A stretch of DNA of 64,000 nucleotides, taken from the sequence record NC_133255.1; one strand, 5' to 3'. The position numbers were made by a program, and so were the translations under genes. The notes beneath the pieces were generated by a model. The model saw only the letters and a list, made by a program, of their open reading frames with translations. It was not told the DNA's origin and did no database searches. Below are positions 3,630 to 44,192 of the stretch, piece by piece (the first letter of the stretch is position 1; every line of letters begins with the position of its first letter). The stretch is from Escherichia phage vB_EcoS-26175I.

Positions 3630-4080
3630 GTTCTTCTCTCCGACGTTTGCGTTCTTTCATCATGTAAGCTGCTACAACTTCATGGTAGTAGTCGTTAATG
3701 TTACCTTCAGGTAAGAAATGCTTAATCGTTTCTAGCTGGCAGACAACACGGTAAAGATGTTTATTTGGTAAACATAATTTCATGCCCATAACAAATCCAG
3801 AGAAGCCTGGAACACTGAACATGGGTTGGGCTTCTACGTTGCCCTCTGGGTTGATACTAAGTTCAATCGAGATGCCCATTTTCATGCTATAAAGCTGACA
3901 GCCTTCACCATTGCCAAATCTTGACCAAACAGTGAAGTCCTCATCTATCTGATCTTGGATTTCTTCGACTGCATGTTTAATTCTAGGGTCTAAATTACTC
4001 ATCTTCACCTTCAAAGCCGCAGTCATAACGGCAAGTAAAAGAATCAGAACTATTAGTACGTTGAGTAGTGATTTCACCAC
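3583..4080 (-). CDS. hypothetical protein
   Basis: 165 aa ORF. Confidence 0.35.
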   Translation of the reverse strand: MVKSLLNVLIVLILLLAVMTAALKVKMSNLDPRIKHAVEEIQDQIDEDFTVWSRFGNGEGCQLYSMKMGISIELSINPEGNVEAQPMFSVPGFSGFVMGMKLCLPNKHLYRVVCQLETIKHFLPEGNINDYYHEVVAAYMMKERKRRREERERAKSQQSSTDSSN

Positions 4081-4294
4081 GTTTACTAACAGTAATAGCC
4101 GGAGTAGAGAAGTTTTTATTAGTATAGATTTCTACTTTGCCATTACGTTCTTTAACATCACGTACTTTACCATATTCGGTGGTAATGCCGTTCTGCTGAA
4201 CTTTAACATTACCATTTTTCATAGAAACTTTGGTAGATGCCAGAGAACCGAAACTAACTGCTGAGATTACTAGAGCAATAATAAACTTATTCAT
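3995..4294 (-). CDS. secreted protein (signal peptide)
   Basis: internal Met start MNKFIIALVISAVSFGSLAS looks like a signal peptide; longer ORF extends to 4360. Confidence 0.35.
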   Translation of the reverse strand: MNKFIIALVISAVSFGSLASTKVSMKNGNVKVQQNGITTEYGKVRDVKERNGKVEIYTNKNFSTPAITVSKRGEITTQRTNSSDSFTCRYDCGFEGEDE

Positions 4295-4568
4295 CTTCAT
4301 CGTCCTCTTCACAGTCACGGCATACATCATAATCATTGAAAGAATGTTCGTGAGCTTCACACCACCAAGAACAAGAATCGCACAAGAAAATTTCTGTTTT
4401 CTCTATTGCCTGTCCAAGCAGTTCGTCTGCTTCATCTTCGGTGATTTTCAAACTACAAACATCAGCAACACGTTTAACAATCATTTTACCTGCTTCATGA
4501 TAAGACATACAAGTCCCAACAACATCATGCTCAAGTACGTGAACAGCACAGTCTAGGCGAGTTTTCAT
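4287..4568 (-). CDS. Cys-rich acidic small protein
   Basis: 93 aa; SD GAGAGG and early promoter at 4599-4627 immediately upstream. Confidence 0.4.
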   Translation of the reverse strand: MKTRLDCAVHVLEHDVVGTCMSYHEAGKMIVKRVADVCSLKITEDEADELLGQAIEKTEIFLCDSCSWWCEAHEHSFNDYDVCRDCEEDDEDE

Positions 4569-4598
4569 TTCAAAGCCCTCTCATCAATTTATATAAAT

Positions 4599-4627
4599 AT
4601 TATATCAAAAGGAGAGGGTTTTAGCAA
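4599..4627 (-). promoter_or_regulatory. sigma70-type early promoter (TTGCTA-17-TATAAT)
   Basis: plus attata 4599-4604, tagcaa 4622-4627; SD GAGAGG then ATG 4568. Confidence 0.6.
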
Positions 4628-4644
4628 ATGAATTATTTACGAAA

Positions 4645-5040
4645 TTAGTCGTAGCACCACCATAACCCACGCTTACGCAGATCATGATCGCGATTATAGT
4701 CGTAATTTTCTGGATCTTTCATCACACGATGAAGTTCGCGACGGTTTCCCTGACGAACCATTTTGTTAGAATGCCACTTAACATTCCTACTAACAGAATC
4801 CCACCAGTGCCCATCTTTCTTCTCGTTACGGATGATATTTTCCTGAATCTCCTTCTCAATTTCATCCCAAGTTTTAGCCCATGCTTCATTGGATCGAACT
4901 TGATAATACTTCCACTGCTTACCATCCCTATCCGTGTAGATATACGGAATACGGATATTAGTGCTATGAAAATTATAAGTAGAACGATGTGCATCACGCC
5001 AGTGACGATCACCAGATTGTTTACGATATGTACGGCTCAT
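4645..5040 (-). CDS. hypothetical basic protein
   Basis: 131 aa ORF. Confidence 0.35.
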   Translation of the reverse strand: MSRTYRKQSGDRHWRDAHRSTYNFHSTNIRIPYIYTDRDGKQWKYYQVRSNEAWAKTWDEIEKEIQENIIRNEKKDGHWWDSVSRNVKWHSNKMVRQGNRRELHRVMKDPENYDYNRDHDLRKRGLWWCYD

Positions 5041-16106: not shown

Positions 16107-16196
16107 TGGAGGAAGAAGTGGGAATCGAACCCACAAGGCTATGTTTCAAACCGACAGATTAGCAATCTGCTGCAATACCGTTATGCTATTCTTCCT
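16107..16196 (-). tRNA. tRNA-Ser (anticodon GCT), long variable arm
   Basis: 87-nt body, perfect acceptor ggaagaa/ttcttcc, T-arm gtggg-aatcgaa-cccac; loop ttGCTaa. Confidence 0.7.
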
Positions 16197-16705
16197 TAAT
16201 TATTTCGGGCATATTCCCCATGAAGTTTCTCTCTCAGTTGAATTAGAGCTTCATTTGCTGCTTCAGGAGTACTGTGCAGCCCTGCGGAGTATGACTTACC
16301 TTTAAACATTATTCTATCCTGCCACTGACCAGATGCTTTGTGGTAGGATACTCCCTTAAATCCGCTAGTATTCCTAGAAGATTTACTAGCATTATGAGTA
16401 TTAGTGGTACTATCCGCTGCTCTTAAATTTAAAGGATGTATGTTTAACTTATTGCAGTCTTTATGATCAATCATTTCCGGCCTATACCCATAATATAGTA
16501 TAAATACTATGATATGAGCTAAGTAATCTTGGTGATCAACGTTAACTCTGATATACCCAGAGCTTTTGTGCAAAGATCCCGCAGGTTTATTGGCAAACTT
16601 AGTATTAAATATCTTCTCCTCTCTGGAGTTTCCGGAGAGCGGATTCCACACCAGTACACCATCTTCTAAACGGAATCTATAAAGTATAGACTCATAGTCT
16701 AGCAT
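16196..16705 (-). CDS. free-standing HNH homing endonuclease with AP2-like DNA-binding region
   Basis: 169 aa; IDHKDCNKLNIHPLNLRAA (HNH) followed by SGFKGVSYHKASGQWQ. Confidence 0.55.
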   Translation of the reverse strand: MLDYESILYRFRLEDGVLVWNPLSGNSREEKIFNTKFANKPAGSLHKSSGYIRVNVDHQDYLAHIIVFILYYGYRPEMIDHKDCNKLNIHPLNLRAADSTTNTHNASKSSRNTSGFKGVSYHKASGQWQDRIMFKGKSYSAGLHSTPEAANEALIQLREKLHGEYARNN

Positions 16706-16775: not shown

Positions 16776-17072
16776 TTACTGAACATTGCACTGATATACC
16801 TGTTTGATACGTGTCACTGACTTCTTAGTTGGGTTGATAGAAGAACCCTGCCACCAACGTGATTCTGAGCTGAGAACAGCACCAGGAACAGCTTGTTCTT
16901 TTGGCAGAACAATATCAAAACACTGTTCACCCATATTATCTTTAATGTGCGACCAAATGTCTAGAGTAAATCGTTCTAGCTTATTACAAACTTGAACTTG
17001 ACAAAGTTCCTGTTGTGGAGCAGCAAATACAGAAGTAGATACTAGAGTCAATGCAAGTACAATGCGTTTCAT
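16776..17072 (-). CDS. secreted small protein (signal peptide)
   Basis: MKRIVLALTLVSTSVFAAPQ signal peptide; promoter 17103-17131. Confidence 0.35.
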   Translation of the reverse strand: MKRIVLALTLVSTSVFAAPQQELCQVQVCNKLERFTLDIWSHIKDNMGEQCFDIVLPKEQAVPGAVLSSESRWWQGSSINPTKKSVTRIKQVYQCNVQ

Positions 17073-17178: not shown

Positions 17179-17871
17179 TTATTTGTTAACGCGTACAAAG
17201 TATCCTTTATAGGCTCCCATAATAGAGTTACCTAAGAATACTAGCCACATTGCTAGGATTGCATAAGATGCACCTGTAGATTGAGTAGTTACAAGCCAAA
17301 TGTACACAGTACCAATGTTAATAGCAATCCAGATCAGCCACTGCTCGGCATACTGCTTAACCATAAGCCACATAGCGATCACACTACCTACCGCAGTAAA
17401 TGCATCCAACATTGGGAATGGATCAGCCGTAGTAGCTAAGAAACTACCATACCCTAACGTGGCTACTGCTAGAATCCCTAGAGTCAGCAGAGCTTGGACT
17501 TTAGTCAGAATCTTAGTTGGAACATCTGGCAGATTACTTGGCTTATTTTTATGCCATAAGTACATTCCATAAAACTGCATAGGAACGTAGTATAGCAGGT
17601 TTAGTGCAGCGTTACCATAAAGATCTGCGTTTAAAGCTGTAATACCATAGGTAAGAACACCAACTAAGCCCCAAATATAGTTAGAAACACGTCCTTTAGC
17701 AACCAAAATAACACAAACTACGTTGGTTATCGCAGTAGCCCAATCTAGAGCTGTACCATTATAGTTTGCTAAACTAATAAAGGCGACTGCCATAAACAGC
17801 CACAGATATTCCAAAGGTTTCCAGTTTTTAAAGTCATTTACAAGATAGTTAGTCATATTAAAACTCTCCAA
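17179..17871 (-). CDS. pnuC: nicotinamide riboside transporter PnuC-like membrane protein
   Basis: 230 aa polytopic membrane protein, Trp-rich TM helices, immediately downstream of the NadR-like gene. Confidence 0.6.
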   Translation of the reverse strand: MESFNMTNYLVNDFKNWKPLEYLWLFMAVAFISLANYNGTALDWATAITNVVCVILVAKGRVSNYIWGLVGVLTYGITALNADLYGNAALNLLYYVPMQFYGMYLWHKNKPSNLPDVPTKILTKVQALLTLGILAVATLGYGSFLATTADPFPMLDAFTAVGSVIAMWLMVKQYAEQWLIWIAINIGTVYIWLVTTQSTGASYAILAMWLVFLGNSIMGAYKGYFVRVNK

Positions 17872-18913
17872 CGTTAAAGTGATGAATCAGCCAGTCTACT
17901 GCGTTTACTGCTTCGTCCATACGAACTTTGTAGTCCGGGGAGTCGATGTAAACAGTACGTCCTTCAGGGAACTGATTTGGAAATTCTTTCTTCATCTGCT
18001 CGAACAGTTCAGAAGTAATTGAACGATCGGAGTTAATACGTAAACCATCATCTACCCACTTGACAGTAGGCGCTAGAACAATTACTAAATCGTAATGTTC
18101 TTCTTTTGCAATTGCTGTAACCACAGGATTCTTACGATGTTCATAAAGTCTGTGGTAGAACTCAGTAATAAAAGCATTTGTATCCACAAACATGATCTTA
18201 TTTGCAGTACGTTCTGCTTCAAACTCTAGCTCTTTGTGTCTGAACGCAATTTTACTATAATCTTCGCTGGTAAGCAGATTTTCGTTACCAACTAGATCAA
18301 CTTCACAATACGTTCGACCATATTCTTCTACCCACGAAGTGTTGTATAGCTTCGCAAGGTATTTTGTTAAAGTAGTCTTTCCCGAGCTTTCAGTCCCAAT
18401 GAGTACAACCTTACGCACGTAATCTTTACGAACTACGCTAGGAAGAAACTCCCAATACTTCATAAGATCATTACGAATCATTGTAGCTGAGATTGGAACA
18501 CGAGTCCGATCAGAATCTACAATATAATGACCAAACTTCGGCAGATATTTCTTATATTCTGCATCATAGTCTAGTTCGCTAGAGAAAATGGTGATCTCAG
18601 GCAAATGTCCATAATTTTCATTAAGGATTCTAGCATATTCCGGCCAACCATTCGGATATTCAGGAATATCATCTTCAATAATGTACTCTACCGAAACGTG
18701 CTCAATATCCGCGTAAGTTTGTTCTAACCAACGAAGACGATTCTTTAACTGTAATACTTCCTGATCACGTGTGTTCTGCTTATCCAGCCAACGATTATCA
18801 TGACTAACTACAATAATAACTCGTTCACACATAGTTGCTGCTGTGTTTATTAGGTTAATATGACCACGCGTTAATGGTGCGAACTTACCAATTACTAGAC
18901 CAGTCTTAATCAT
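17858..18913 (-). CDS. nadR: NadR-like bifunctional NMN adenylyltransferase / ribosylnicotinamide kinase (no HTH domain)
   Basis: N-terminal nucleotidyltransferase motif GKFAPLTRGH; C-terminal Walker A GTESSGKTT; Met start at 18913 with SD and promoter 18944-18972. Confidence 0.75.
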   Translation of the reverse strand: MIKTGLVIGKFAPLTRGHINLINTAATMCERVIIVVSHDNRWLDKQNTRDQEVLQLKNRLRWLEQTYADIEHVSVEYIIEDDIPEYPNGWPEYARILNENYGHLPEITIFSSELDYDAEYKKYLPKFGHYIVDSDRTRVPISATMIRNDLMKYWEFLPSVVRKDYVRKVVLIGTESSGKTTLTKYLAKLYNTSWVEEYGRTYCEVDLVGNENLLTSEDYSKIAFRHKELEFEAERTANKIMFVDTNAFITEFYHRLYEHRKNPVVTAIAKEEHYDLVIVLAPTVKWVDDGLRINSDRSITSELFEQMKKEFPNQFPEGRTVYIDSPDYKVRMDEAVNAVDWLIHHFNVGEF

Positions 18914-18943
18914 GTTTGATTCCTCTCTCAAATTTATAAATAT

Positions 18944-18972
18944 ATTATACAGAGAATTTAGCATTCAAGCAA
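18944..18972 (-). promoter_or_regulatory. sigma70-type early promoter driving nadR-pnuC
   Basis: attata 18944-18949, aagcaa 18967-18972. Confidence 0.55.
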
Positions 18973-19110
18973 TCGAATTTTTAAACTTTTTAGTGGAAAA
19001 ATCTCAAGGCATTTAGTGGTAGCACGTTGTTGCTGCAATAATAGTATATGATTCTAAAGAATTAAATACTAAAGACCTTAGTTGAATAACTTATGGGATT
19101 TTCTTTTACC

Positions 19111-19152
19111 TTAAATACAGAAAAGCCCGCGCTCTCGGAGGAAACGCGGGCT
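19111..19152 (-). terminator. rho-independent terminator downstream of SPFH gene
   Basis: stem agcccgcg / cgcgggct followed on minus strand by tttctgtattt. Confidence 0.55.
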
Positions 19153-19176
19153 TGTTTCGAAGATTACGTGGAACTA

Positions 19177-20121
19177 TTACTTATTACGCATATCCATAAT
19201 CATTTGACCATCGTAGCCAGTACCGACAACAGTCTGCGGTACACCACCTTGGTATTTTTCAGCACGAAGCATTTCAACTTCCAGCTGCTTCCAACGAATC
19301 ATTTCAGGAGTAATGGTACGTTGCAGAGCGGCGTTAGCTTCAGCTTCTTTCTTAGCTGCGTACAGTTTAGCATCTGCGTCACGTTCGTTAGCTACTGCCA
19401 TGTTTTCACGAGCGGAACGATCTGCCTCAGCTTGCTTAACTTTCTGCTGTGCTTCTTGTTCAACACGAGCCAGTTCAGCTTTTGCAGCGTTAACTTGTTC
19501 TTCACGAACTTTAGTGTTCTGTACCTGTTCCATGATTACCGGTGGCAGAGTAATATCCTGAAGGAATACTTGCTTAACCGTGTAACCATAAGGACGCGCG
19601 TACTCTTCTACCTCTTGCTGAATAGCAGTTTGCAGTTGAGCCTGAATCTTAGCGTCGAACAGATCTTGTGCTTTTGGTACGGACTTACCAAACTCACGAA
19701 TCGTAGACAGCATCTTCTCTTCAACGTATTTGTTCAGAGCCTGATCCTGAGTACCTGCGTTAACACGGTTCATAGGAGCTTTAGCACCATCAAACTGCAA
19801 CATAACGGTAATGTCAACAGTAGACTTAAACTTATCCTGGCTAGGAACCTGAAGTTTATCCAGTTTCATGGAAATATCTTTCGTACTAAAAGTATCAAAA
19901 GAAGCAAATGGGTTAACAATATGGAAGCCTGGCAATACAGGATTAGGGCTAACTTTACCCAGGAAGGTTTGAGTCTTAACAGTACCATCCTGAACAACTG
20001 TATAGGAATTGAGAGCCAGAATAAGAGCACCAAGACCAACAGCAGCACCAACACCCCAACGTTTAATAGTACGAATTACTTTTTGCTCAGAAGTCAGTTC
20101 TTTAGTGTTTTTAGTAAACAT
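19177..20121 (-). CDS. SPFH/band-7 (prohibitin/HflC-like) membrane protein
   Basis: N-terminal TM, SPFH-like core, C-terminal Ala/Glu/Gln-rich coiled coil; terminator hairpin 19111-19152 downstream. Confidence 0.65.
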   Translation of the reverse strand: MFTKNTKELTSEQKVIRTIKRWGVGAAVGLGALILALNSYTVVQDGTVKTQTFLGKVSPNPVLPGFHIVNPFASFDTFSTKDISMKLDKLQVPSQDKFKSTVDITVMLQFDGAKAPMNRVNAGTQDQALNKYVEEKMLSTIREFGKSVPKAQDLFDAKIQAQLQTAIQQEVEEYARPYGYTVKQVFLQDITLPPVIMEQVQNTKVREEQVNAAKAELARVEQEAQQKVKQAEADRSARENMAVANERDADAKLYAAKKEAEANAALQRTITPEMIRWKQLEVEMLRAEKYQGGVPQTVVGTGYDGQMIMDMRNK

Positions 20122-20132
20122 ATATTTCCTTA

Positions 20133-20333
20133 TTATTTAGAAGAGTTATCTACTACAGTTACTTTAGTTGCAGAAATAAATAGGCTAGCATCCACAGCAA
20201 ATTCAGGAGCTTTGATATCTCCATTATGAAATATGACTATACCGGAGACTACTTCAAATGCTAGTGCTGTAACATCGGTGGTCTTTAGTTGTGAATGTTC
20301 ACCTACTACTTTTACTATATATCGTGTTTTCAC
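20133..20333 (-). CDS. hypothetical protein
   Basis: 66 aa ORF. Confidence 0.3.
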   Translation of the reverse strand: MKTRYIVKVVGEHSQLKTTDVTALAFEVVSGIVIFHNGDIKAPEFAVDASLFISATKVTVVDNSSK

Positions 20334-20359: not shown

Positions 20360-20434
20360 TGGCCGAGGTGACAGGATTCGAACCTGCATAAAGGAATTTA
20401 GAAGACTCCTGCCTATCCCTTAGACTACACCCCG
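20360..20434 (-). tRNA. tRNA-Arg (anticodon TCT)
   Basis: T-arm acagg-attcgaa-cctgc; anticodon stem ggaat/actcc (one GU); loop ctTCTaa. Confidence 0.65.
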
Positions 20435-20442
20435 AGAATAAA

Positions 20443-20952
20443 TTACTTAATGATTTCGTTCAGTTTGGTTTGGCTTTCTAGCGCTGCTTTAGCTGATTTC
20501 TCAGCATCCCTAGCAGCACGTCGTGCTTTAGAGTCAATCAATAGCTTGTCATACTTGATATTAACGAACTCTTTAATATCATGGTAGAAACGTTGATGTG
20601 CCATGTATTCTTGTGCATCTGCATCGTAACAGCGCATATAGAAGTAATCACTAGGCTCTCCACGAAGTGTACGCTCTAGAATCTGAGGTCGATAACGACG
20701 TAATGTATCTTTCGCCATTTTTATTTCATCAGTTTCTTCACCAAGCTGAACTAGGTGATAAAGACGAGTATTGTCGATGTAATCCAAAGCTACGCTAAAG
20801 TATTCACCTTCTCGAAGATTGTATCCTGTAATCTCACTCATTTTCTCACGAGCTTGATCAAGTGTCAGGCGTTCTGGAAAATGTGCTATATGCAGAATAC
20901 GAGGGCAACACATTTCTTGATGATCAAAGATACAAGTTGTTCCTAGATTCAT
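20443..20952 (-). CDS. hypothetical protein
   Basis: 169 aa ORF downstream of the 1-kb ORF-poor region. Confidence 0.4.
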   Translation of the reverse strand: MNLGTTCIFDHQEMCCPRILHIAHFPERLTLDQAREKMSEITGYNLREGEYFSVALDYIDNTRLYHLVQLGEETDEIKMAKDTLRRYRPQILERTLRGEPSDYFYMRCYDADAQEYMAHQRFYHDIKEFVNIKYDKLLIDSKARRAARDAEKSAKAALESQTKLNEIIK

Positions 20953-21921
20953 ATTGATTCCTTTTGTTAGGTATTTTTAAGAACTCTCGTAAAAGTCCTT
21001 AAAGATACCCGGCGGTAGGTAGGGTCAGCCCCCTCAGATTAAGCTCTGCAGCCCTTCCGTCAGACAATATCTTCCAGTTTAAGTCAGGGTGACTTTGTGG
21101 TTATTCAGCTAAGGCTGATCGGCAGCTCTTAGGTCATGACTCCTCGTCGCTCTTTACTCACCGGCTAGGAAGTTATCTCGAGTTCTTCCTAGCTCTTTAG
21201 TCGTGCCATTAAGGTGCCTTCTAAGAGACTTACCTTTTCCCACTTTCGATTTGGGCATGTATCAGGTAAGGGTAGCCAAATCAGCATCCTAGTCCTACGG
21301 GGTCTCATCAAATTACATACCACCGCTTTTCGATATGTAATGCCCATGTCTATACGGGAGAAGAAAATGGGCATCTTTCTCTTCGTCTGATAGCTTGAAA
21401 AACGACTCCTCATGGAGGAAAAACTTCACTATCTAGGCTAAAGCCTAAAGTTCTTCTTTAATCCGGCAAAGCAAAACCGTAGTATATACTTTTCAGGAAT
21501 GGTTGGTTAGTCTGGAACCAACTACCGCGTGGTTTTGGCAGTGCACAGCTGCCTGCGATTGCTTCGCCATTAGAAGCACCAGTTATCCAACTCTTTCCGA
21601 CCGTGGGACTCGAACCCACATCTTCAGGCGGTGAAGCCCTAATAATACCTATTATACTAGGACGGCAGTGTTGTTACATAAGTGGTTTCGGCACCCCACT
21701 AACATAAACTAGAGAAGAGTTTACGAGATTTCGGGACAGCTCCCGAGTTTTCCGCAGATTTTCAGTTCCCTATCAATAGCAATAAGCGTTAGCTCGTAGC
21801 CTCTCTCAGAGTACTTACTAGTCTCCAACTCACCGACTCTATTCAGTGGAATAGCTATCCTAGTAGGAGTCACTAAACTCACTCAGCGTAATCGGCTCGC
21901 TGTTCTCTAATTTATGAATCT

Positions 21922-21950
21922 ATTATACAGAATTTTGAAGCGTTTAGCAA
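21922..21950 (-). promoter_or_regulatory. sigma70-type early promoter reading into the 1-kb ORF-poor region
   Basis: attata 21922-21927, tagcaa 21945-21950. Confidence 0.5.
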
Positions 21951-21958
21951 ATCAATTT

Positions 21959-22393
21959 TTAATTAAATTCGCCAGCAACCTGAGCAGCAACTTTACCCTC
22001 GTAACGACCAGGAAACTCTTCCTTAATCGCTTTCATTAGCTGGCCTTTAGTGATTCCAGAATTTAATTTAACCAGTTCGGCAAAGTAATTACGAATCTGT
22101 ACTTCTGATAACTGCTCTAACGCGTATTCGTATTCTAGACCCGCTAACAGATCGAGATATTCAGCATCCGGAGTATATTCAATGTTTGCCTTTTCAGCAG
22201 CCGCCTGAGTATTTTCGATTGCTTTGAACTGCGATTTAATCCAGTTAGTAAATTCTAACTTAGTTACGCAGTCCTTATCAATACGCTGCAAGTCACCTAA
22301 AATCGTACTTAGGTGCTTAACCGACACAGTGTCACCACGTTTGCGAGCAGCTTCAATCAACTCTCGCAGTACACGAATCATATTCGTACCCAT
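21959..22393 (-). CDS. hypothetical protein
   Basis: 144 aa ORF. Confidence 0.4.
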   Translation of the reverse strand: MGTNMIRVLRELIEAARKRGDTVSVKHLSTILGDLQRIDKDCVTKLEFTNWIKSQFKAIENTQAAAEKANIEYTPDAEYLDLLAGLEYEYALEQLSEVQIRNYFAELVKLNSGITKGQLMKAIKEEFPGRYEGKVAAQVAGEFN

Positions 22394-22632: not shown

Positions 22633-23100
22633 TTAAGTTTTCTTAACCACAGGCTTGTAGAACGTATGGCCTTGAATCTTCGTTGTTTTCTTAAACTTCT
22701 TTGTCCAGTACGGTTTATCTTTACCACTATGGAAGTATAACGCTCCATGTGTTGGATCTTGTGGTAAATCAACGTAGTATATCACTCTAGCTAAATTCTT
22801 AGCAACTTGCCAAGCCTCATCGGTTTTATCAACTTTTGGTCTCTTGGCCACCCAAGAGAACTGGTTAGACTGATATACTACTTTACAGTAAGAATCAGGA
22901 AAAGTACCAGAGTTAACACGGTTTTTAGTAACCTGTGCAACTGCGATCATTCCTTTAGTGCCCTCACCTCGTGCTTCGAAGTAGATATTTTTTGCAATGC
23001 AATCAATCTGCTTTGAGTCGTAGGTCGCATGACTATTGAAGCTATAGGTTAGGGCAGCTATTAAAAGCAAAGCTGCCTTCATTTTATTTACTCCGGCCAA
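22633..23100 (-). CDS. SleB-like cell wall hydrolase
   Basis: signal peptide; NIYFEARGEG...AVAQVTKNRV...QFSWV matches SleB/Hydrolase_2 signature. Confidence 0.7.
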   Translation of the reverse strand: MAGVNKMKAALLLIAALTYSFNSHATYDSKQIDCIAKNIYFEARGEGTKGMIAVAQVTKNRVNSGTFPDSYCKVVYQSNQFSWVAKRPKVDKTDEAWQVAKNLARVIYYVDLPQDPTHGALYFHSGKDKPYWTKKFKKTTKIQGHTFYKPVVKKT

Positions 23101-23405
23101 TCGTACTCAATACGATTAGGGCTTTCTTGATACCCTTCGTCAAGCAAATCATTGCGCATGTTCTGCTTAGCTACAGGGTTCGAGGTTACTAGTACCACTT
23201 TCTTGGGTCTCTGACCAAATTCTAGGAGTAAACGAAGAATTTGATAACCTTCCATACCATCTACAGCCAGATCGTTATCCATATAAACGAAATGACCCGT
23301 GGTATCGGTTGTATTCAGAAACTCAATAGCGGCTTCGGGGGTTCGAATGATAATGTCCATTCCATGGAGGTTACGCACATCATCAATCAGAATATGAAAA
23401 ATCAT
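23088..23405 (-). CDS. hypothetical protein
   Basis: 105 aa ORF; promoter 23435-23464. Confidence 0.35.
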   Translation of the reverse strand: MIFHILIDDVRNLHGMDIIIRTPEAAIEFLNTTDTTGHFVYMDNDLAVDGMEGYQILRLLLEFGQRPKKVVLVTSNPVAKQNMRNDLLDEGYQESPNRIEYDWPE

Positions 23406-32201: not shown

Positions 32202-34592
32202 TTACAGGTTACAACCGCCTGATGCACAACCTGCTGCTTCTTCACCAGCTCCACCACCATTTTCAGTGTTGAAGTTAGCGTAGTACCAAGTTTTCCAACC
32301 GTACTTAACAGCAGTCATAAAGTCACGAACTACTACTGGGCCAGGAATTACCTCATTCTCAAACTTAGTATAGTCATAGTACATATTCGTACTGATAGAC
32401 TGGCTAAAGAATTTCTGCATAGTTGCTACCCATTTGATCCACTCGATACGATCTACATCATAAGCCAGTTTATAGCTCATTAATGTATCCCAATCGGTTG
32501 CACCTGGAGCAATTGCAATTACTTTATTCACTGCACTACCCTTGATAGATACAATCTTACGAGGTGGTTCAATAGAGTTAGTAACACCTAGCAGTACAGA
32601 GGAACTTTCACCCGGCATCTGAGCAGTCAGAACAGAGTTGCGCATACCATATTTCAGAATATCTGCACGCAGAGATTCCCAATCCATTTCTAGACCTACA
32701 GTTACCAGTTCATCAACAGTTTTCTTGTACGTGTCGATTACCAGAGTTCCTTGCGAAGGCTTAGTACGATTAAACCAGTCACATGCACCTTGTTCTTTAG
32801 CCAGACGTACAGAGGCTTTATGCAGGAAGTAGGACAGCTTTTCAGCTTCACGGTGAATCCAGTTACGAGCTTCAACACCTTCGTAAGCCAAACCTTCTGC
32901 TGCCATTGCGCCTGCTGCGTTCATCAGACCAATACCAACGTTACGACGTTTCTTAGCCGTGTACTCCATAGTTGGGAATGGGTAATCCTGAATCTCGATG
33001 ATTGTATCAACGAATTTCAGAAGAATGTAGCAAGTTTTCTCCCATTCAGCCAGAGATTCCATGCGACCTAGCACAACACCACCTAAGTTACACAGAGATA
33101 CTTCACCAATATCTTCTGGACGCATATCATCTAACTGATCTTGGGTCTTATACAGTTCCGTAATATGGTGGAATGGGCGAGTTGGCTGAGTAATTTCAAC
33201 ACAAAGGTTGGTCATACGAATCGGGTCAAGGAAGTTACCATGACGGTTAGATTCACCAATGTGATGAGCATACATACGCCCTGTTTCCATACGGATACGT
33301 AACCAAGTATCTAGGATTTCTTTTGCAGAGATTCTAGGAGCTGCTGGAATTGTTTTTCCTTCATGGTCGATCTTTGTAAGAGATGCCACACGTTTCTCCG
33401 CTGCCACGTAGATTTCTTCAAACTTAGCCTCATCTTCGCCATAAAACGCTTCATGAACTTCTGGTGCGTAGAAGTAGGACATTAGCGTAATATCTTCGTT
33501 TTTCAGGTAACGTTTTAACAGAAGGTTGTTAAAGCTCAGAGAGTAATCCATCTTATCGATTTTATTCTCGTCTGTAGCACGTTGTTGTTTAACCTGCATC
33601 AACTGAATGATTTCAGGATCGAAGTATGGATAAGACACAGTAGCAGAACCGCCACGGGTTTGCTGAGTGTTAGCTTTTACTGATCGGTCAATGTGTCGAT
33701 AATATGGCAGTTTTCCGGAATGCGGGAATGCCCCATTTCGCACCGGATCAGCAATTGATCGGCTTTCAAGATGATACCCGATTCCCGCTCTGGCTGCGAC
33801 CATTTTGAAGACGATGTGCTCGGCTGTGTCGATTGAATCGAGCGTGTCAGTGGAATCCACGAGGCAGCAACTAGCAAATCCACGGTCACTAGAGCGCAGG
33901 CCAACCAGTGGCGGCGTAGGAACGTTGATTTTGTGGAGTGACATTGCATTGTAGAGGTCGATTGCATCTAGAATTGTCCAGTTAGGTTGAGATAACATCG
34001 CCATTGCCATACCCATGTAGGCAAACTGCGGGGTTTCATAAATTTCACCAGTTGCAATATTACGACGAGAATACTTGTCGAAGAACTGTTTCAGTCCACC
34101 ACTAGTGAATAAACGATCGCGATCATGATCAATAACTTGGTTCAGAGCGTCAAACTGATCATCGCTAATCCATGCACTCATATTTTCCCAAGCGCCAACA
34201 CGAACCATATGATCGTGGAAGAAACGCAGAGAAGGTGGTTCGAAGGAATCATATAGGCGTTTACGCATCTGCGCAAGACGTAATTCCTTCGCTACAGTAT
34301 CATATGCTGGATTGTCTTTGATAAGACCTTCAGCAGCTTTAATTAACACATCTTGGAGTGTATCGGAGTCTACAACACCTTTGGGTAGATTTTTCAGGGC
34401 AGCCATAACTACGGCAGACCAACTTACGTCAGTATCTTTACATGCCCATGCAGCCCAATCATTGAGTTTTTCAGGAGCAAAGTCCTGAACAGTACCGTCA
34501 CGTTTAATTACTTTTTCTATGCGATGGCTCATTTGGCTTTCCTTTTTGTAGTTATCAGGATTTAAATAGTATTCTACTTTATTCTCAGTCAT
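32202..34592 (-). CDS. nrdA: ribonucleotide reductase class Ia alpha subunit
   Basis: 796 aa; ATP-cone N-terminus, C-terminal Cys pair ...GCASGGCNL. Confidence 0.9.
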   Translation of the reverse strand: MTENKVEYYLNPDNYKKESQMSHRIEKVIKRDGTVQDFAPEKLNDWAAWACKDTDVSWSAVVMAALKNLPKGVVDSDTLQDVLIKAAEGLIKDNPAYDTVAKELRLAQMRKRLYDSFEPPSLRFFHDHMVRVGAWENMSAWISDDQFDALNQVIDHDRDRLFTSGGLKQFFDKYSRRNIATGEIYETPQFAYMGMAMAMLSQPNWTILDAIDLYNAMSLHKINVPTPPLVGLRSSDRGFASCCLVDSTDTLDSIDTAEHIVFKMVAARAGIGYHLESRSIADPVRNGAFPHSGKLPYYRHIDRSVKANTQQTRGGSATVSYPYFDPEIIQLMQVKQQRATDENKIDKMDYSLSFNNLLLKRYLKNEDITLMSYFYAPEVHEAFYGEDEAKFEEIYVAAEKRVASLTKIDHEGKTIPAAPRISAKEILDTWLRIRMETGRMYAHHIGESNRHGNFLDPIRMTNLCVEITQPTRPFHHITELYKTQDQLDDMRPEDIGEVSLCNLGGVVLGRMESLAEWEKTCYILLKFVDTIIEIQDYPFPTMEYTAKKRRNVGIGLMNAAGAMAAEGLAYEGVEARNWIHREAEKLSYFLHKASVRLAKEQGACDWFNRTKPSQGTLVIDTYKKTVDELVTVGLEMDWESLRADILKYGMRNSVLTAQMPGESSSVLLGVTNSIEPPRKIVSIKGSAVNKVIAIAPGATDWDTLMSYKLAYDVDRIEWIKWVATMQKFFSQSISTNMYYDYTKFENEVIPGPVVVRDFMTAVKYGWKTWYYANFNTENGGGAGEEAAGCASGGCNL

Positions 34593-39361: not shown

Positions 39362-39854
39362 TACTCCTGTGATTTTCCTGGATATTGATGGGGTGCTCAA
39401 TTCGAGCATCTCTCACCATCATGCTCCAGATAATGAAAAGCTGTTCTTTGGCAGTGATTGGGTTTATAAACCGTTACTCCAGGCTTTTCAGAACTTCCTT
39501 AAACCTTCTCCAATAATGATTGTTGGGGTATCTTCATGGTTTTCTGTACGAAACGAGATGGAGAACGTTCAGATTATGACCGGGCTCGGTTTGATCGATC
39601 GTTTTCTTGGTACAACAGATTTTACTGGTGGCGGTTTATCTCGTGGTAATTCTGTCTTACGTTTCGTAGAAAAACATAAGCTCAAGCATTGGTGCGTCCT
39701 AGATGATGCTGGTGCTATGATGTATCAATTTCCTACTGTTATTGTAAATGGCAGGACTGGAATAAACTTTCAAGATTTAAATGCTATCAGCTATACGCTG
39801 GAATTTAGTCCAGATCTTGAAATGTGTAAGGCTCTTCAGAAACTCAAGGTGTAG
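39339..39854 (+). CDS. HAD-superfamily phosphatase (possible nucleotidase)
   Basis: HAD motif I FLDIDGVLN near N-terminus. Confidence 0.5.
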   Translation: MLLVEISNTPVIFLDIDGVLNSSISHHHAPDNEKLFFGSDWVYKPLLQAFQNFLKPSPIMIVGVSSWFSVRNEMENVQIMTGLGLIDRFLGTTDFTGGGLSRGNSVLRFVEKHKLKHWCVLDDAGAMMYQFPTVIVNGRTGINFQDLNAISYTLEFSPDLEMCKALQKLKV

Positions 39855-39856
39855 AT

Positions 39857-40285
39857 ATGTTCGATAATCTTTTCATGAAAGAGGTAAACCCTATGCTTCT
39901 CAACTTCTGGCGTTCTCTCCCTAATGGTATGTACAATGAAACCATCAATCTGCTTAAGATTTGGTGTGAGAATAACGATATCTTCTTATCCTTTAAAGGC
40001 CCACTAGAGGAAGCTCCGTGTATTGGAGTTAGTGTGGATTTAGGGGAGGGAGTAGAAGAAATTGTGGACTGGAAAGAACTCGATGAAATGGGTCTGGTTT
40101 TTGCCTTGAACCATAAGCTGTTTATGCCTGCAAATCACCGTCTTATTGTAAATTATCGCACTGGTGAAGCTCCTGCTTTCCAGGTAAATGAACGTGAGGG
40201 CTGGTCATATTCGCCCGAGGAAGTAAATGAGGGGATTCAGAAACTTCGTCGTTTCGGGTATATGATCCCAGGTTTAACTGCTTAA
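39857..40285 (+). CDS. acidic protein, tandem paralog A
   Basis: shares W-EL--MGL--ALN...TGE-P...PGL pattern with next ORF. Confidence 0.4.
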   Translation: MFDNLFMKEVNPMLLNFWRSLPNGMYNETINLLKIWCENNDIFLSFKGPLEEAPCIGVSVDLGEGVEEIVDWKELDEMGLVFALNHKLFMPANHRLIVNYRTGEAPAFQVNEREGWSYSPEEVNEGIQKLRRFGYMIPGLTA

Positions 40286-40294
40286 GGAGGCAGA

Positions 40295-40690
40295 ATGGAA
40301 CAAGTATTTTGGCGTCAGATAGATCCTAGTTTGGTAGAGCGTGCTGAAGGGCTCCTTGCACGTTGGTTGGGGGTTGACAAGGTTAGTGTAACATTTCCGT
40401 TTACTTCTGTAACAGACCCTAGTGTAGGTGTCTTTGTGGACGAAGATGAAGATGATGGTTGGGAAGCTGACTGGAATGAATTGTCCAGCATGGGCTTGAT
40501 TGTTGCCCTCAACTTCTCTATATTCCATCCACGTGGCTTAGCCATTACACGTGACCCCGAGACTGGTGAATCCCCTTATCTTTTGCAAGTAGAAGATGAT
40601 ATTTGGGAGTACACCGAAGATATTCTCGAAGAAGCTAAAGGTCAATTAAATCTCATTGGAATCTATGTCCCAGGCCTAAATGTTGATTGA
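40295..40690 (+). CDS. acidic protein, tandem paralog B
   Basis: paralogous to 39857-40285; terminator-like hairpin downstream. Confidence 0.4.
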   Translation: MEQVFWRQIDPSLVERAEGLLARWLGVDKVSVTFPFTSVTDPSVGVFVDEDEDDGWEADWNELSSMGLIVALNFSIFHPRGLAITRDPETGESPYLLQVEDDIWEYTEDILEEAKGQLNLIGIYVPGLNVD

Positions 40691-40781
40691 TTTTCATTAG
40701 TTCAATCCTGATTACCGAGTCATTTTGGCTCGGTTTTCTCCGTGCTCAAAGACACTGATAGCACCTTCGGAAAAATTTTAC

Positions 40782-41402: not shown

Positions 41403-44192
41403 GTGTTCTCAATCCTACAAGGTCACGCAGGATTTTCCAGAGATAAAGCCACTGGCATCTGGAAAGAGATCAAAGTGGAAGATTACACCTTTGCAAAGCG
41501 ATTCTCTAAAGAGCATCCAGAAGGTAAACCAGCTTCCATGCCCTTCAAATTTGACGTACTTGAAGAACTTGACCCGCAAAACCTTGCTGAAATGTTACCT
41601 ATCATGCGTCGTCTTACCAAAGATCCGCATATTGTAGCTATTCGTGGTAAATGTCTAGCTCCAAAAGATAATGTGCGTCGTACCAGAGGAAACTTTAACG
41701 TATCCAATCCTAGTCATATTATTGCTATGGACGTGGATGGTATTGTAGATACTGGTGGCTATGACAAGTTTAATCTTGTTGGCATGGCACGTCATATTAT
41801 TAAGATGTTGAATAGTATTAGTGAGGATATGTTTCCTCTTGATGCAGGGTTTATTGCCCATGCATCGTCTTCGGCTGGATTAAAACCAGGTATCCGAATG
41901 CACTTAATGCTAGAATCTAATGTCAAGGTAACGCAGGGACAGTTAAAGTTCTTATTTACATCTATCAATGATAGTAGTAAGCAAAAGTACGGCTTTGATA
42001 TTGCTGACTTAGCTTATTATTCTTCTGTTCAGCTTCACTATTTCGCAGATCCCTTATTTGATGATGGTATAGTCGATCCGTTTAAAGCGGAGAATAAACC
42101 ACGTCTTGTGTATGTTAAGGGTTCGAAGGTGAATCTACCTAATAACCTAGTTGACTTTGAGACAACTAGAGGTGAGTTTAAAGAAGAATTCTATTCCTTA
42201 CTTGACCAAATTAAAGGCAAGAAGGCTGCATCTGATAAAGTGGAAGAAACCATCAGCGAACTAGAAGAAGCTGAGGATGGAGTGTACCTGCGTATTATCC
42301 CAAAGCTGTATCACAGAGCATTGGAAGATGGTGTGGACTTCGCATGGTTAGAAAAGGAGATTAAACCAGCCTTATCTGAGTATATTGCAACTAAGGATAA
42401 TAGTCGTAACATTCAAGATTACTTTAATAACGGTCGTAAGCAGGCTCTCAAAGCCTTTGTAAATAACTCCAAACGTGAGATTCCACCAAACTTAAAAGGT
42501 GTACCATTAAAACGTCTAGATACAGATTCACCACCAGAAGTTCCATACCTGAAAATTAACATTGTACCACCAAAAGGACATTTAACATTTGTTAAGGCAA
42601 GTCTTGGTACGGGTAAAACTACAGCAGTAACTAAGTGGCTAGATGCAGGTGTTCTTCCAGGAAACTTTATTGCAATCACGAATACTAGGGCACTTGTATC
42701 TTCAAACGCGAAGAAATTCAGTGCTGGCCAGTATGATAAGTCAGTTGATATGCTAAACTTCAAACGTGGTGCTATTGATCGTATGTCTTCAACTATTCAC
42801 TCTATCCATAAGTTCAAGAGCTTTGTGGGTCAGATTGATACGATCTTTATTGATGAATGTGATGCAGTAATGAATGATCTGTTATTCGCTCCGGTTGTTA
42901 AAAACCGTCGTGAATGTATTCAGGTTCTTCGTGATATCCTTATTACTGCTAAAACTGTTATCTTATCTGATGGTGATATCAGTGCAGAAACGATTGAAGC
43001 CTATGGTTCTTTGATTGATTTTGATAAACCAGTTGCATTCTATAATCATCACCGTAAAATGCTGGCGAAAGCTCACGCTTATGAATTCCCTGACGAATCC
43101 AGTATTTGGGTTGCACTTCAAACATCTCTAGAGATGGGGGAGAAGTCAATCCTAGTATCTGACTGTGGACCGGATGAACTGAATGAAAAGGGAATGGCGT
43201 TACGTCGTAATACTGGTGCGTTAGTTAAAGAAATTCACTCAAACTCTACATCTGATGTAGATATCCGACGTATTCTGGATTATACAACTAATGAGCTAAT
43301 TGATCAACAGATTGATTGTTTGTTATGTAGTCCATCTGTAACGAGTGGTGTTGACTTTAACTATTTTGATAACGTATTCGTAATCACTAGAACCTCAAAC
43401 CAAGCGCCAAACATGCGTTTCCAAGCAATCAGGCGCGACCGTGGTGCTCAGAATATCTATTACTTCATTGATAAGTCTACAAGTGGATTTTCTGCGGGTT
43501 CCGAGCAGTATAATATTGATGAAGGTTGGATTGAGTTAGCCCAACAACTGTACGCACGTCGTCGTGAGCTGGAATCTAAAAACTATACTAGTACTTTGCG
43601 TTATTATCTACTTGATCAGGGTGCAACTATTGATATTTTCAGTGAAAGCTGGGGAACTATCGAAGGTGCAGGCAAAGAGTATACAGAAGAGCGAATCAAA
43701 GCTATTTTGTACTCAACTCCTGAATATTGCGCACCACGTCATGCAGATGCCTATGAAGCCAAGATACTTCTGGTTCGCTATTATCATCTGGATTCTATTA
43801 AAGATGTAACAGTGGAACACGTTGAACAGTATATCAAGGATAAACCGAATGATCGAGCTGCATTTTTCCATAAGATGCACGAGATGTTCTGGGAAGATAT
43901 TAAAAAGTGTTCAAACGTAACAATCAAACCGTTTATCGAAGCTCTTAAGAATAAGAAGAAGGATTTCTTCCTTAAGACAGGTCAGAGCGCTAACCCAAAA
44001 TATGCTCGTATGTATCTTGGCATGATGGGTATCGGTAAAGATCTGGATACGGAAAAGATTGTGGACTGGTACAGAACTTACTGTAAGATCGAATGTATGC
44101 CGATTCCAGTTAAGTTTATGACAGATGAAGAACGTCAGATGCATGAGGAAGCTCTTGCTGAATTGGGAGCTAGAAATGACAGTGAAGAATAA
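41403..44192 (+). CDS. large P-loop NTPase/helicase-like replication protein
   Basis: Walker A ASLGTGKTTAV and Walker B IFIDECD; probable GTG start at 41403 after SD AGGAG (longest ORF begins 41280). Confidence 0.55.
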   Translation: MFSILQGHAGFSRDKATGIWKEIKVEDYTFAKRFSKEHPEGKPASMPFKFDVLEELDPQNLAEMLPIMRRLTKDPHIVAIRGKCLAPKDNVRRTRGNFNVSNPSHIIAMDVDGIVDTGGYDKFNLVGMARHIIKMLNSISEDMFPLDAGFIAHASSSAGLKPGIRMHLMLESNVKVTQGQLKFLFTSINDSSKQKYGFDIADLAYYSSVQLHYFADPLFDDGIVDPFKAENKPRLVYVKGSKVNLPNNLVDFETTRGEFKEEFYSLLDQIKGKKAASDKVEETISELEEAEDGVYLRIIPKLYHRALEDGVDFAWLEKEIKPALSEYIATKDNSRNIQDYFNNGRKQALKAFVNNSKREIPPNLKGVPLKRLDTDSPPEVPYLKINIVPPKGHLTFVKASLGTGKTTAVTKWLDAGVLPGNFIAITNTRALVSSNAKKFSAGQYDKSVDMLNFKRGAIDRMSSTIHSIHKFKSFVGQIDTIFIDECDAVMNDLLFAPVVKNRRECIQVLRDILITAKTVILSDGDISAETIEAYGSLIDFDKPVAFYNHHRKMLAKAHAYEFPDESSIWVALQTSLEMGEKSILVSDCGPDELNEKGMALRRNTGALVKEIHSNSTSDVDIRRILDYTTNELIDQQIDCLLCSPSVTSGVDFNYFDNVFVITRTSNQAPNMRFQAIRRDRGAQNIYYFIDKSTSGFSAGSEQYNIDEGWIELAQQLYARRRELESKNYTSTLRYYLLDQGATIDIFSESWGTIEGAGKEYTEERIKAILYSTPEYCAPRHADAYEAKILLVRYYHLDSIKDVTVEHVEQYIKDKPNDRAAFFHKMHEMFWEDIKKCSNVTIKPFIEALKNKKKDFFLKTGQSANPKYARMYLGMMGIGKDLDTEKIVDWYRTYCKIECMPIPVKFMTDEERQMHEEALAELGARNDSEE

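Follow-up and report, generated by a model that had tools for sequence, protein, structure and literature searches.

As membrane organisers, SPFH proteins are universal, and it is only recently that the architecture of their cages has been solved. According to the published structures, these proteins build membrane cages, and HflK/C surrounds FtsH on the periplasmic side (PMC13086221). In phages, SPFH open reading frames (ORFs) of the T4-like group were already tabulated in 2006 (PMC1524935). Here, we describe the SPFH gene located at 19177..20121 on the minus strand of a 64,000-nucleotide stretch of Escherichia phage vB_EcoS-26175I (NC_133255.1); this whole stretch is called the window below. 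Taking identity, architecture, topology, scaffold role, and accessory status jointly, and naming no specific target, we put the probability that the gene encodes a phage-lineage SPFH scaffold at roughly 60%.

The ORF begins with ATG, encodes 314 amino acids, and its coordinates are exact; an AAGGA ribosome-binding site (20127..20131, minus strand), read from the sequence, stands 5 nt before the start codon. Residues 50-224 match the Pfam Band_7 family (PF01145) with 70.2 bits (E=2.9e-19), against a gathering cutoff of 23.6 bits, and PHROG_200 aligns with the protein from end to end (E=4e-85). A search of the NCBIfam models returned no named family, and no HflK/HflC match at E<=0.01. The gene is under strong purifying selection: compared with T5-type orthologs, the ratio of nonsynonymous to synonymous substitution rates (dN/dS) is 0.056-0.073 at dS 0.75-0.9, and the minus-strand coding frame is therefore real. 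An antisense ORF at 19093..20229 (plus strand, 378 amino acids) is longer than the SPFH gene; it is of low complexity (rich in L, S, F, T, and N) and unsupported, and was rejected as an artefact. Automatic gene callers might choose it over the SPFH gene. An earlier annotation made from the letters of the window, called the sequence-only reading here, had proposed a phage-encoded SPFH/band-7 membrane protein at this place and had suggested a Band_7 profile search, a negative result of which was to count against it. The domain was detected by that search, and the proposal is borne out by the sequence profile, the predicted fold, and the N-terminal anchor.

The phage origin of the region is equally clear. 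Between window positions 17000 and 21000, the sequence agrees with Escherichia phage vB_EcoS-26175 II-V at 100% identity, and with many T5-like phages of Salmonella and Escherichia at 95-97%. The window has the T5 DNA polymerase and 31 tRNA genes arranged in T5-like synteny, and is that of a T5-like coliphage. In phage T5, the ortholog of the SPFH gene is T5.080 (NC_005859, 39791-40738), with 85% nucleotide and 92% amino-acid identity. In the deposited records, its homologs are named “SPFH/band 7”, “band 7 domain-containing protein”, “PHB domain-containing protein”, or “membrane protein”, and further records call them “protease regulator HflK” or HflC (GenBank, JGI) or “lipoprotein” (NC_005859 for T5.080, PHROG_200, and many RefSeq records). 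Because the sequence is 100% identical to deposited ones, many of which are annotated as SPFH and can be traced to T5.080, the identification itself was available before; the presence of the gene in T5 and T4-like genomes was pointed out some twenty years ago. What is added here is the correction of the lipoprotein label, a predicted topology, a defined transcription unit, the recognition that the clade is mostly phage-borne and without NfeD, the identification of natural deletion strains, and a pattern in the gene neighbourhoods.

The architecture of the protein was read from its sequence and from a single-chain AlphaFold2 (AF2) model built on 48 homologs, with an overall predicted local confidence (pLDDT) of 74. 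The model consists of a helix at residues 11-38, an alpha/beta domain at 40-191, an uninterrupted helix at 194-269, a further helix at 272-289, and a low-confidence tail. In gene coordinates, all on the minus strand, a basic N-terminal tail (codons 1-21, 20059..20121; six K/R, net charge +4), predicted to be cytoplasmic, is followed by a hydrophobic segment (codons 22-42, 19996..20058), a putative signal-anchor or transmembrane helix, in which the Kyte-Doolittle maximum covers residues 24-42 and where the model has its first helix. The alpha/beta SPFH domain (codons 43-193, 19543..19995) is supported by the Band_7 match, the strands and helices of the model, and the Foldseek matches to SPFH proteins, and its dN/dS is 0.04-0.05. 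The next part is a continuous 76-residue helix rich in A, E, K, and Q (codons 194-269, 19315..19542; pLDDT 76-89), which, judging from the model, probably corresponds to the coiled-coil wall helix of SPFH cages, as it aligns to the coiled-coil regions of QmcA and prohibitin. Finally, a second helix and a conserved C-terminal tail with near-invariant columns (codons 270-314, 19180..19314) form a candidate cap or oligomerisation element. No part of the protein is more constrained than these C-terminal 45 residues (dN/dS 0.017-0.037), which contain the conserved motif GGVPQTVVG..Y.G..IMD.R.K. Such constraint, at a dN/dS of 0.02-0.04, is compatible with a high-order ring or cage and is no proof of one.

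The Kyte-Doolittle scan found no second hydrophobic segment in the protein. The N-terminal segment is present in all 118 close homologs and in 111 of 113 distant ones, and it is flanked by six K/R before versus one after; the K/R excess on the N-side of the anchor recurs in 109 of the 118 close homologs, and among the distant relatives the same bias is seen in 69 of 111 and the opposite one in 25. Approximately 10 of the 113 distant clade members have a genuine lipobox in place of the anchor, such as LLGSC in Aeromonas prophages, and those proteins must therefore be exported. Taken together, the charge bias and the lipobox-bearing relatives place the SPFH domain outside the cytoplasm, so that it should, as a prediction, face the periplasm behind an N-in/C-out anchor. 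These relatives, together with the labels of T5.080 in NC_005859 and of PHROG_200, also speak for the view that the protein is a lipoprotein. On the contrary, the protein contains no cysteine at all and a lipobox occurs in none of 120 close homologs; since acylation requires a cysteine, this view is refuted for the protein of the window, the label in T5.080, PHROG_200, and many RefSeq records is wrong for it, and we leave the lipoprotein reading practically no credence.

In comparison with solved structures over 260-305 aligned columns, Foldseek matched the model to full-length protomers of cages, namely erlin1/2 (1e-14), prohibitin (4e-13), HflK/C (1.6e-11), and QmcA (1.6e-9) in the PDB, and further to stomatin, flotillin, and the major vault protein. 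The family profile recovered from the PDB sequences QmcA (5e-7), prohibitin-2 (8e-5), and prohibitin-1 (7e-4). By sequence, the phage family thus appears not to be close to any solved SPFH subfamily. The sequence-only reading had suggested that the protein could modulate host membrane proteolysis. In its explicit form, this would be a mimic of HflK/C that binds the host FtsH on the periplasmic side and alters the degradation of membrane or regulatory substrates for the benefit of the phage. The predicted N-in/periplasmic topology is the same as that of HflK/C, the chains of the HflK/C-FtsH complex are matched by Foldseek at 1.6e-11 to 6e-10 over approximately 290 columns, and some GenBank and JGI records name homologs after HflK/HflC; the main objections are that these names are annotation transfer, that erlin and prohibitin are better structural matches, that HflK/HflC is found neither by NCBIfam nor by the family profile, and that this is a single gene with no K/C pair and no FtsH-related gene nearby. 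We therefore regard a specific HflK/C mimic as unlikely.

For the phage-lineage scaffold, the following mechanism can be proposed. The protein would insert into the inner membrane with its N-terminus inside and its C-terminus outside, the bulk lying on the periplasmic face as in HflK/C, prohibitins, and erlins, and, by means of the long helix and the C-terminal tail, would self-assemble into a ring or cage enclosing a membrane patch; the models for such a cage are the solved assemblies of HflK/C, prohibitin, erlin, stomatin, flotillin, and QmcA. The benefit would be conditional, and most likely a takeover of the host, or a protective role, at the level of the envelope early in infection. As examples, the cage might regulate whether a membrane protease (for instance FtsH) can reach its substrates, or might keep the inner membrane intact against natural insults. 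Early expression is supported by the conservation of the T5 P16-17 promoter and of the terminator, and by the position of the homolog in T7-like prophages, between the genes for DNA polymerase and exonuclease.

The accessory status of the gene rests on natural deletions. In T5 st0 (AY692264, locus L065), the wild-type region at approximately 33.4-41.9 kb is missing: the junction lies at record positions 33674-33683, the record resumes at wild-type position 41879, and approximately 8.5 kb are deleted. T5.080 (39791-40738) is absent from st0 because it lies within this span, and a tblastn search of the st0 locus with the SPFH protein gave no match. The same deletion also removes tRNA-Arg, RNAX, part of the YqeY-like gene, T5.077-079, hegA, and several tRNAs. 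The standard strain for the structural biology of T5 is thus a natural SPFH knockout. In NG_S8, a complete Epseptimavirus isolate (locus L064, 3962-4129), codons 18-276 have been lost in frame between two ATTCGT repeats, leaving a 55-codon SPFH remnant, and nadR-pnuC is also absent. Truncated copies are also found in BFVD, for example a 128-residue fragment in phage bastian. The deletion phenotype for which the sequence-only reading had called can therefore be approached with variants that already exist in nature, as T5 st0 and NG_S8 are both viable. In contrast to this dispensability in the laboratory, the gene is retained in nature: at >=90% identity, SPFH occurs in approximately 424 records versus approximately 442 for DNA polymerase, or approximately 96% of close relatives. 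Laboratory dispensability, natural retention, and horizontal mobility are together the mark of an accessory gene whose benefit is conditional.

Horizontal mobility can be seen from the distribution. With tblastn, the SPFH protein was found in 722 phage records from the Demerecviridae, Straboviridae, Grimontviridae, and Schitoviridae. The T4-like copies of Klebsiella, Enterobacter, and Cronobacter phages share approximately 81% amino-acid identity with the T5-like ones from residue 38 on, the T4-like copies of Aeromonas phages 61-65%, those of the Grimontviridae 79%, and those of Vibrio N4-like phages approximately 33%. The gene spreads horizontally among unrelated virulent phages. Among 1.84 billion cluster representatives, a profile search found only 1921 matches at E<=1e-3 and 86 at E<=1e-30; so few matches indicate a restricted clade of the SPFH superfamily, and this clade is largely phage-borne and lacks an NfeD partner. 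Seemingly chromosomal copies in Aeromonas caviae (L061/L062) and Bacterioplanoides (L063) proved to belong to T7-like prophages integrated there, in which they stand between the genes for DNA polymerase and 5'-3' exonuclease. These prophages carry a T7-type single-stranded DNA-binding protein (SSB), primase-helicase, DNA pol A, exonuclease, and head-tail connector, and the Aeromonas copy bears the LLGSC lipobox mentioned above. A Vibrio copy and a copy on a 5.6-Mb chromosome are apparently native and stand alone. In the six cellular or metagenomic SPFH contexts sampled, no RtcB was present. As a side observation, the ORF just past SPFH in locus L032 (5931-6281) encodes a 116-residue G-D-V repeat protein (phrog_3163), beta-helical and bactofilin-like in appearance.

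Several points weigh against a phage-lineage SPFH scaffold. Both the topology and the oligomerisation are predictions, and the N-terminal segment might, in principle, be a signal peptide that is cleaved off. In the AF2 monomer, the C-terminal tail is disordered with low pLDDT, and the predicted template-modelling score (pTM) is 0.42; on the other hand, a C-terminus that is constrained and yet disordered is to be expected if its folding requires an oligomer or a partner. No HflK/HflC chain of the PDB was detected with the family profile at E<=0.01, and nothing therefore ties the protein specifically to FtsH. T5 st0 and NG_S8 show that the gene is not required under laboratory conditions. Finally, papers on RaK2-like and N4-like phages give the role of phage SPFH proteins as unknown (PMC7760394, PMC13239085), and our search of the literature found no functional study of, or experiment on, any phage SPFH protein.

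A conditional benefit would also be expected of superinfection exclusion, which the sequence-only reading had mentioned, or, more broadly, of envelope shielding, in which an early, anchored, periplasm-facing protein blocks the entry of DNA from later phages or the damage done by them and by colicin-type toxins. Exclusion proteins such as Imm, Sp, Llp, Cor, and Ltp typically have N-terminal anchors or lipoprotein signals. The SPFH protein has such an anchor, replaced in some relatives by a true lipoprotein signal, its gene belongs to an early transcription unit and, although not needed when a single phage is cultured in the laboratory, is kept in nearly all close relatives, and a secreted SleB-like hydrolase is encoded nearby in three lineages. 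However, no known exclusion protein has the SPFH fold, the PADLOC defence-system models matched neither the SPFH protein nor the products of its neighbours orf66 and ORF169, and T5 already has Llp for receptor blocking. In our judgement, an exclusion function is improbable.

By the arrangement of the signals in the sequence, the SPFH gene closes an early-type transcription unit, in which the order is P16-17 promoter, RNAX-like RNA, ORF169, tRNA-Arg(UCU), orf66, SPFH, and terminator, all on the minus strand. The likely start is a promoter at 21904..21961 (TTGCTA-17-TATAAT) homologous to the T5 early promoter P16-17, with 91% identity over 58 nt and a score of 10/12 in the promoter scan. The unit ends at an intrinsic terminator (19123..19153) located 24 nt past the SPFH stop codon, with a 12-bp stem including seven G-C pairs and a T-run; its hairpin folds with -22.5 kcal/mol (z=-3.3), and no shuffled sequence folds as well. 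At the same position, T5 has an annotated “efficient bidirectional rho-independent terminator”. Immediately upstream of SPFH, orf66 (phrog_11609, 20133..20333) ends 11 nt before the SPFH start codon and is probably co-transcribed with it. It was found in 193 phage records, all T5-like, and is absent from T5 and most Tequintavirus loci; with 193 versus approximately 424 records, its distribution rules it out as a conserved or obligate partner of SPFH. The single-sequence AF2 model of orf66 (pLDDT 48) is unusable.

Further upstream, tRNA-Arg(UCU) (20360..20434; ARAGORN; Rfam tRNA, 49.3 bits) is 98.7% identical to the tRNA-Arg of T5 and lies immediately 5' of SPFH in all T5-like phages examined. 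ORF169 (20443..20952), which has no match in Pfam, PHROG, or PADLOC, stands at the place of the 3' half of the T5 stable RNA “RNAX”; it is common to loci L006 and L007, and may be a gene or part of a non-coding RNA. The region at 21388..21721 is homologous to the 5' half of RNAX (blastn, 80% over 339 nt) and contains a tRNA-like element (21594..21667; Rfam tRNA, 33 bits), which ARAGORN calls “tRNA-SeC(TCA)” here and tRNA-Ser(ACT) in the T5 copy. Its anticodon arm diverges between the two phages, and its T-stem shows a compensatory change relative to T5 (GTGGG/CCCAC versus GTAGG/CCTAC); the element looks like a structured tRNA-like module, not a decoding tRNA. In L050, a close relative with a 99% identical SPFH protein, the stretch of approximately 1 kb from P16-17 to tRNA-Arg (approximately 3700-4650) is unrelated and G+C-richer; it could be aligned neither with the window nor with the RNAX of T5, and another structured RNA may be located there. 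Upstream of the unit in the window, a gene for a “cyclic-phosphate processing receiver” (cREC_REC, 23088-23405, minus strand) and one for a SleB-like cell-wall hydrolase with a signal peptide (Hydrolase_2, 22633-23100, minus strand) are found. This pair adjoins in all T5-like loci and recurs just downstream of SPFH in the Grimontviridae (L003, L031, L034), and the hydrolase alone follows SPFH in L030 and L032. At some distance, among the tRNA genes, an HNH endonuclease with an AP2 DNA-binding domain (16196-16705, minus strand) is a typical homing-endonuclease insertion of the T5 tRNA region.

On the other side of the terminator lie nadR (17858..18913, minus strand; called as an ORF to 18964) and pnuC (17179..17871), both recognised by profile matches, so that the neighbourhood described by the sequence-only reading is real. 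The PHROG alignment of NadR begins at Met18; the true start is probably this codon, at 18913, the called ORF then being 17 codons too long, with a promoter overlapping the excess codons. This promoter (18925..18983, minus strand; TTGCTT-17-TATAAT) was read from its likeness to T5 early promoters. SPFH and nadR-pnuC are separate transcription units because the terminator at 19153-19123 and the promoter at 18983-18925 lie between them. It could be supposed that the SPFH protein is a dedicated partner of NadR-PnuC, for example a scaffold for the PnuC transporter, as the genes adjoin in the window (approximately 260 nt from the SPFH stop codon to nadR) and PnuC is an inner-membrane protein. In addition to the intervening terminator and promoter, however, the distribution largely refutes this supposition. 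At >=90% identity, NadR occurs in approximately 203 T5-like records versus approximately 424 for SPFH, about half of the SPFH-bearing T5-like phages thus being without it; T5 itself has unrelated genes at that place, L007 has no NadR, and in L006 the two genes are separated by a 2.4-kb insertion. Moreover, NadR is present in many Gram-positive phages that have no SPFH. NadR is thus ruled out as an obligate partner, and a dedicated partnership is extremely improbable. Of the link drawn by the sequence-only reading, the adjacency stands and a specific linkage in T5-like phages does not; a looser association stays conceivable, since unrelated NAD-salvage genes lie beside or near SPFH in other lineages.

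To describe these neighbourhoods, all ORFs of 58 loci from 13 SPFH lineages were clustered all against all. No gene family accompanies SPFH everywhere in this set. The T4-like phages conserve the order Macro ... tk - rI - DUF5856 - SPFH - NatV, with NatV directly downstream; NatV is an NMNAT+Nudix enzyme that shares no homology with NadR beyond the nucleotidyltransferase motif. In the Grimontviridae, the order is tRNA-Arg/Met/Arg - Rnl1 - RtcB - AAA+ ATPase - SPFH - an ORF of 71 amino acids - cREC - SleB-like hydrolase. An AAA+ ATPase also precedes SPFH in L046, with NadV 2.8 kb away, and a divergent phage contig (L068) combines Macro, Rnl1, Pnkp, SPFH, Thy1, NatV, and NadV. In the T5-like phages, cREC, the SleB-like hydrolase, YqeY, and tRNA-Arg are found upstream of SPFH. 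As raw counts, with no null model, four independent contexts have NAD-salvage genes, of three non-homologous kinds in all, within 5 kb of SPFH, and five to six of approximately 17 contexts have genes for RNA repair or ADP-ribose processing near it. No such neighbours were found in six other phage lineages, in the T7-like prophages, or in the sampled cellular and unassigned contigs. The AAA+ ATPases deserve a separate remark: the one directly upstream of SPFH in the Grimontviridae (PF00004; L003 1611-2855, L031 3687-4934) has a 28%-identical homolog at the same place in the unrelated contig L046 (3746-4843). This is intriguing, as solved SPFH cages partner AAA+ proteases; Pfam finds no protease or transmembrane domain in these ATPases.

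The recurrence of SPFH near NAD-salvage and RNA-repair genes could mean that it is an accessory anti-defence gene, guarding the inner membrane from abortive-infection effectors that depolarise or perforate it. The NAD-salvage genes in the four contexts (NadR-PnuC, NatV, NatV+NadV, and NadV) and the cREC, Macro, RtcB, Rnl1, or Pnkp genes in five to six contexts suit this possibility, as such classes of neighbours are treated as conflict systems in PMC7824862, and laboratory dispensability combined with strong purifying selection suits a conditional benefit. The main objection is that the early accessory genes of large virulent phages tend to cluster anyway, while the counts come without a permutation null; the T7-like prophages and six other lineages, moreover, lack neighbours of this type. 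A membrane guard of this kind is therefore a doubtful proposal. We hold an equally tentative view of a wider version, in which the SPFH clade would be a conditionally useful counter-defence or conflict protein, forming a periplasm-facing membrane cage and keeping company with NAD-salvage genes (NadR-PnuC, NatV, NadV) and RNA-repair genes (RtcB, Rnl1, Pnkp, cREC, and tRNA and tRNA-like RNAs) in the early accessory regions of unrelated virulent phages. Against abortive-infection effectors or nuclease toxins of the host, it would guard the inner membrane or gate FtsH-dependent import or turnover. In this version, it would be the viral counterpart of a bacterial association of Band-7, RtcB, and a tRNA-like RNA.

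That association was reported by Burroughs and Aravind in 2016 and, as far as it is quoted in bioRxiv 10.1101/312249, consists of bacterial RtcB beside a Band-7 protein and a tRNA-like “b7a-tRNA”; the SPFH gene PaFlo8, likewise, sits in the rtc locus of P. aeruginosa (PMC13086221). A narrower supposition would be that the phage protein is the counterpart of this bacterial system and works with the tRNA-Arg and/or the RNAX element in responses to RNA damage. It draws on the bacterial adjacency, on the presence of tRNA-Arg(UCU) and the tRNA-like RNAX module in the SPFH unit, and on the gene order of the Grimontviridae, which joins tRNAs, Rnl1, RtcB, the AAA+ ATPase, SPFH, and cREC. On the contrary, no RtcB homolog is present in the 64-kb window, RtcB among the SPFH relatives being confined to the Grimontviridae L003, L031, and L034, and ARAGORN and Rfam found no tRNA or tRNA-like RNA within 5 kb of SPFH in 11 of the 13 lineages. 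Although tRNA-Arg and the tRNA-like element share the SPFH unit, the T5-like SPFH gene merely borders a large cluster, which in the window comprises 31 tRNAs. A periplasm-facing domain is, in addition, hard to join to cytoplasmic RNA repair. We regard this supposition as quite improbable. For these reasons, and because early accessory genes cluster in any case, the pattern of neighbours is suggestive only.

The phage-lineage scaffold remains the preferred explanation, and it concerns an abundant clade: the 722 phage records come from several families of large virulent phages infecting Gammaproteobacteria, and T7-like prophages carry further members. Constraint, horizontal spread, and laboratory dispensability form a combination that is typical of genes in host-phage conflict, and the proximity to NAD-salvage and RNA-repair genes offers a concrete set of testable conditions. 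The practical gains are modest: a wrong lipoprotein label has been found, and T5 st0 and NG_S8 are ready deletion strains. If a conflict-related role were confirmed experimentally, the interest of the clade would grow.

How the locus compares with described systems can be set out from the nearest to the more distant ones. T5.080 and its orthologs in the Markadamsvirinae agree with the gene of the window in sequence (92% amino-acid identity), in lying between tRNA-Arg and a strong terminator, and in having promoter P16-17 upstream. The T5 locus differs in having no orf66 between tRNA-Arg and SPFH, in having the 3' half of RNAX where the window has ORF169, and in having downstream the unrelated genes T5.077-079, on the opposite strand, where the window has nadR-pnuC. 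The copies of the T4-like phages (for example 44RR ORF098c, Aeh1 ORF064c, and RB43 ORF139c), Grimontviridae, Schitoviridae, and T7-like prophages belong to the same clade, with 30-83% identity. SPFH proteins are also encoded by N4-like, Vi01-like, and RaK2-like phages, and the fold is common in further phages, such as those of Rhizobium and Streptomyces, and in giant viruses; in these other viruses, the neighbouring genes vary by lineage, and some relatives are true lipoproteins.

Among the cellular systems, E. coli HflK/HflC shares with the phage protein the SPFH fold (structural match 1.6e-11), the long coiled-coil helix, the single-pass N-terminal anchor, and a bulk predicted to be periplasmic. 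It differs in being encoded by a heteromeric gene pair, whereas the phage protein comes from a single gene, lies outside that sequence family, and reaches only 17-18% identity in the structural alignments; no SPFH paralog that could form such a pair was found in the flanks of the 58 loci. Prohibitins 1/2 and erlins 1/2 are the best structural matches (1e-14 to 4e-13) and likewise have an N-terminal anchor and a domain on the non-cytosolic side, and the prohibitins show weak but significant sequence similarity (8e-5 to 9e-4). They are, however, eukaryotic organellar proteins with 15-20% identity to the phage protein, and work as hetero-oligomers together with AAA proteases or ERAD partners, which have no counterpart here. 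The E. coli QmcA (YbbK)-YbbJ system provides the best sequence match in the PDB (5e-7), mainly over the SPFH2 region and the coiled coil; the cage of QmcA faces the cytoplasm (PMC13086221), whereas the phage protein is predicted to face the periplasm. QmcA-YbbJ and the other SPFH-NfeD operons (such as PH1511-PH1510) have an NfeD neighbour, either short or fused to ClpP, and the phage gene has none: Pfam scans found no NfeD (PF01957) in orf66 (the negative for which rests on Pfam), ORF169, NadR, or the immediate neighbours in eight other lineages. With the bacterial Band-7/RtcB/b7a-tRNA system, finally, the phage genes share a Band-7 gene beside a tRNA (in the window and T5) and beside RtcB (in the Grimontviridae relatives); in contrast, the window is without RtcB, and its tRNA is a normal tRNA-Arg that borders a cluster of 31 tRNAs.

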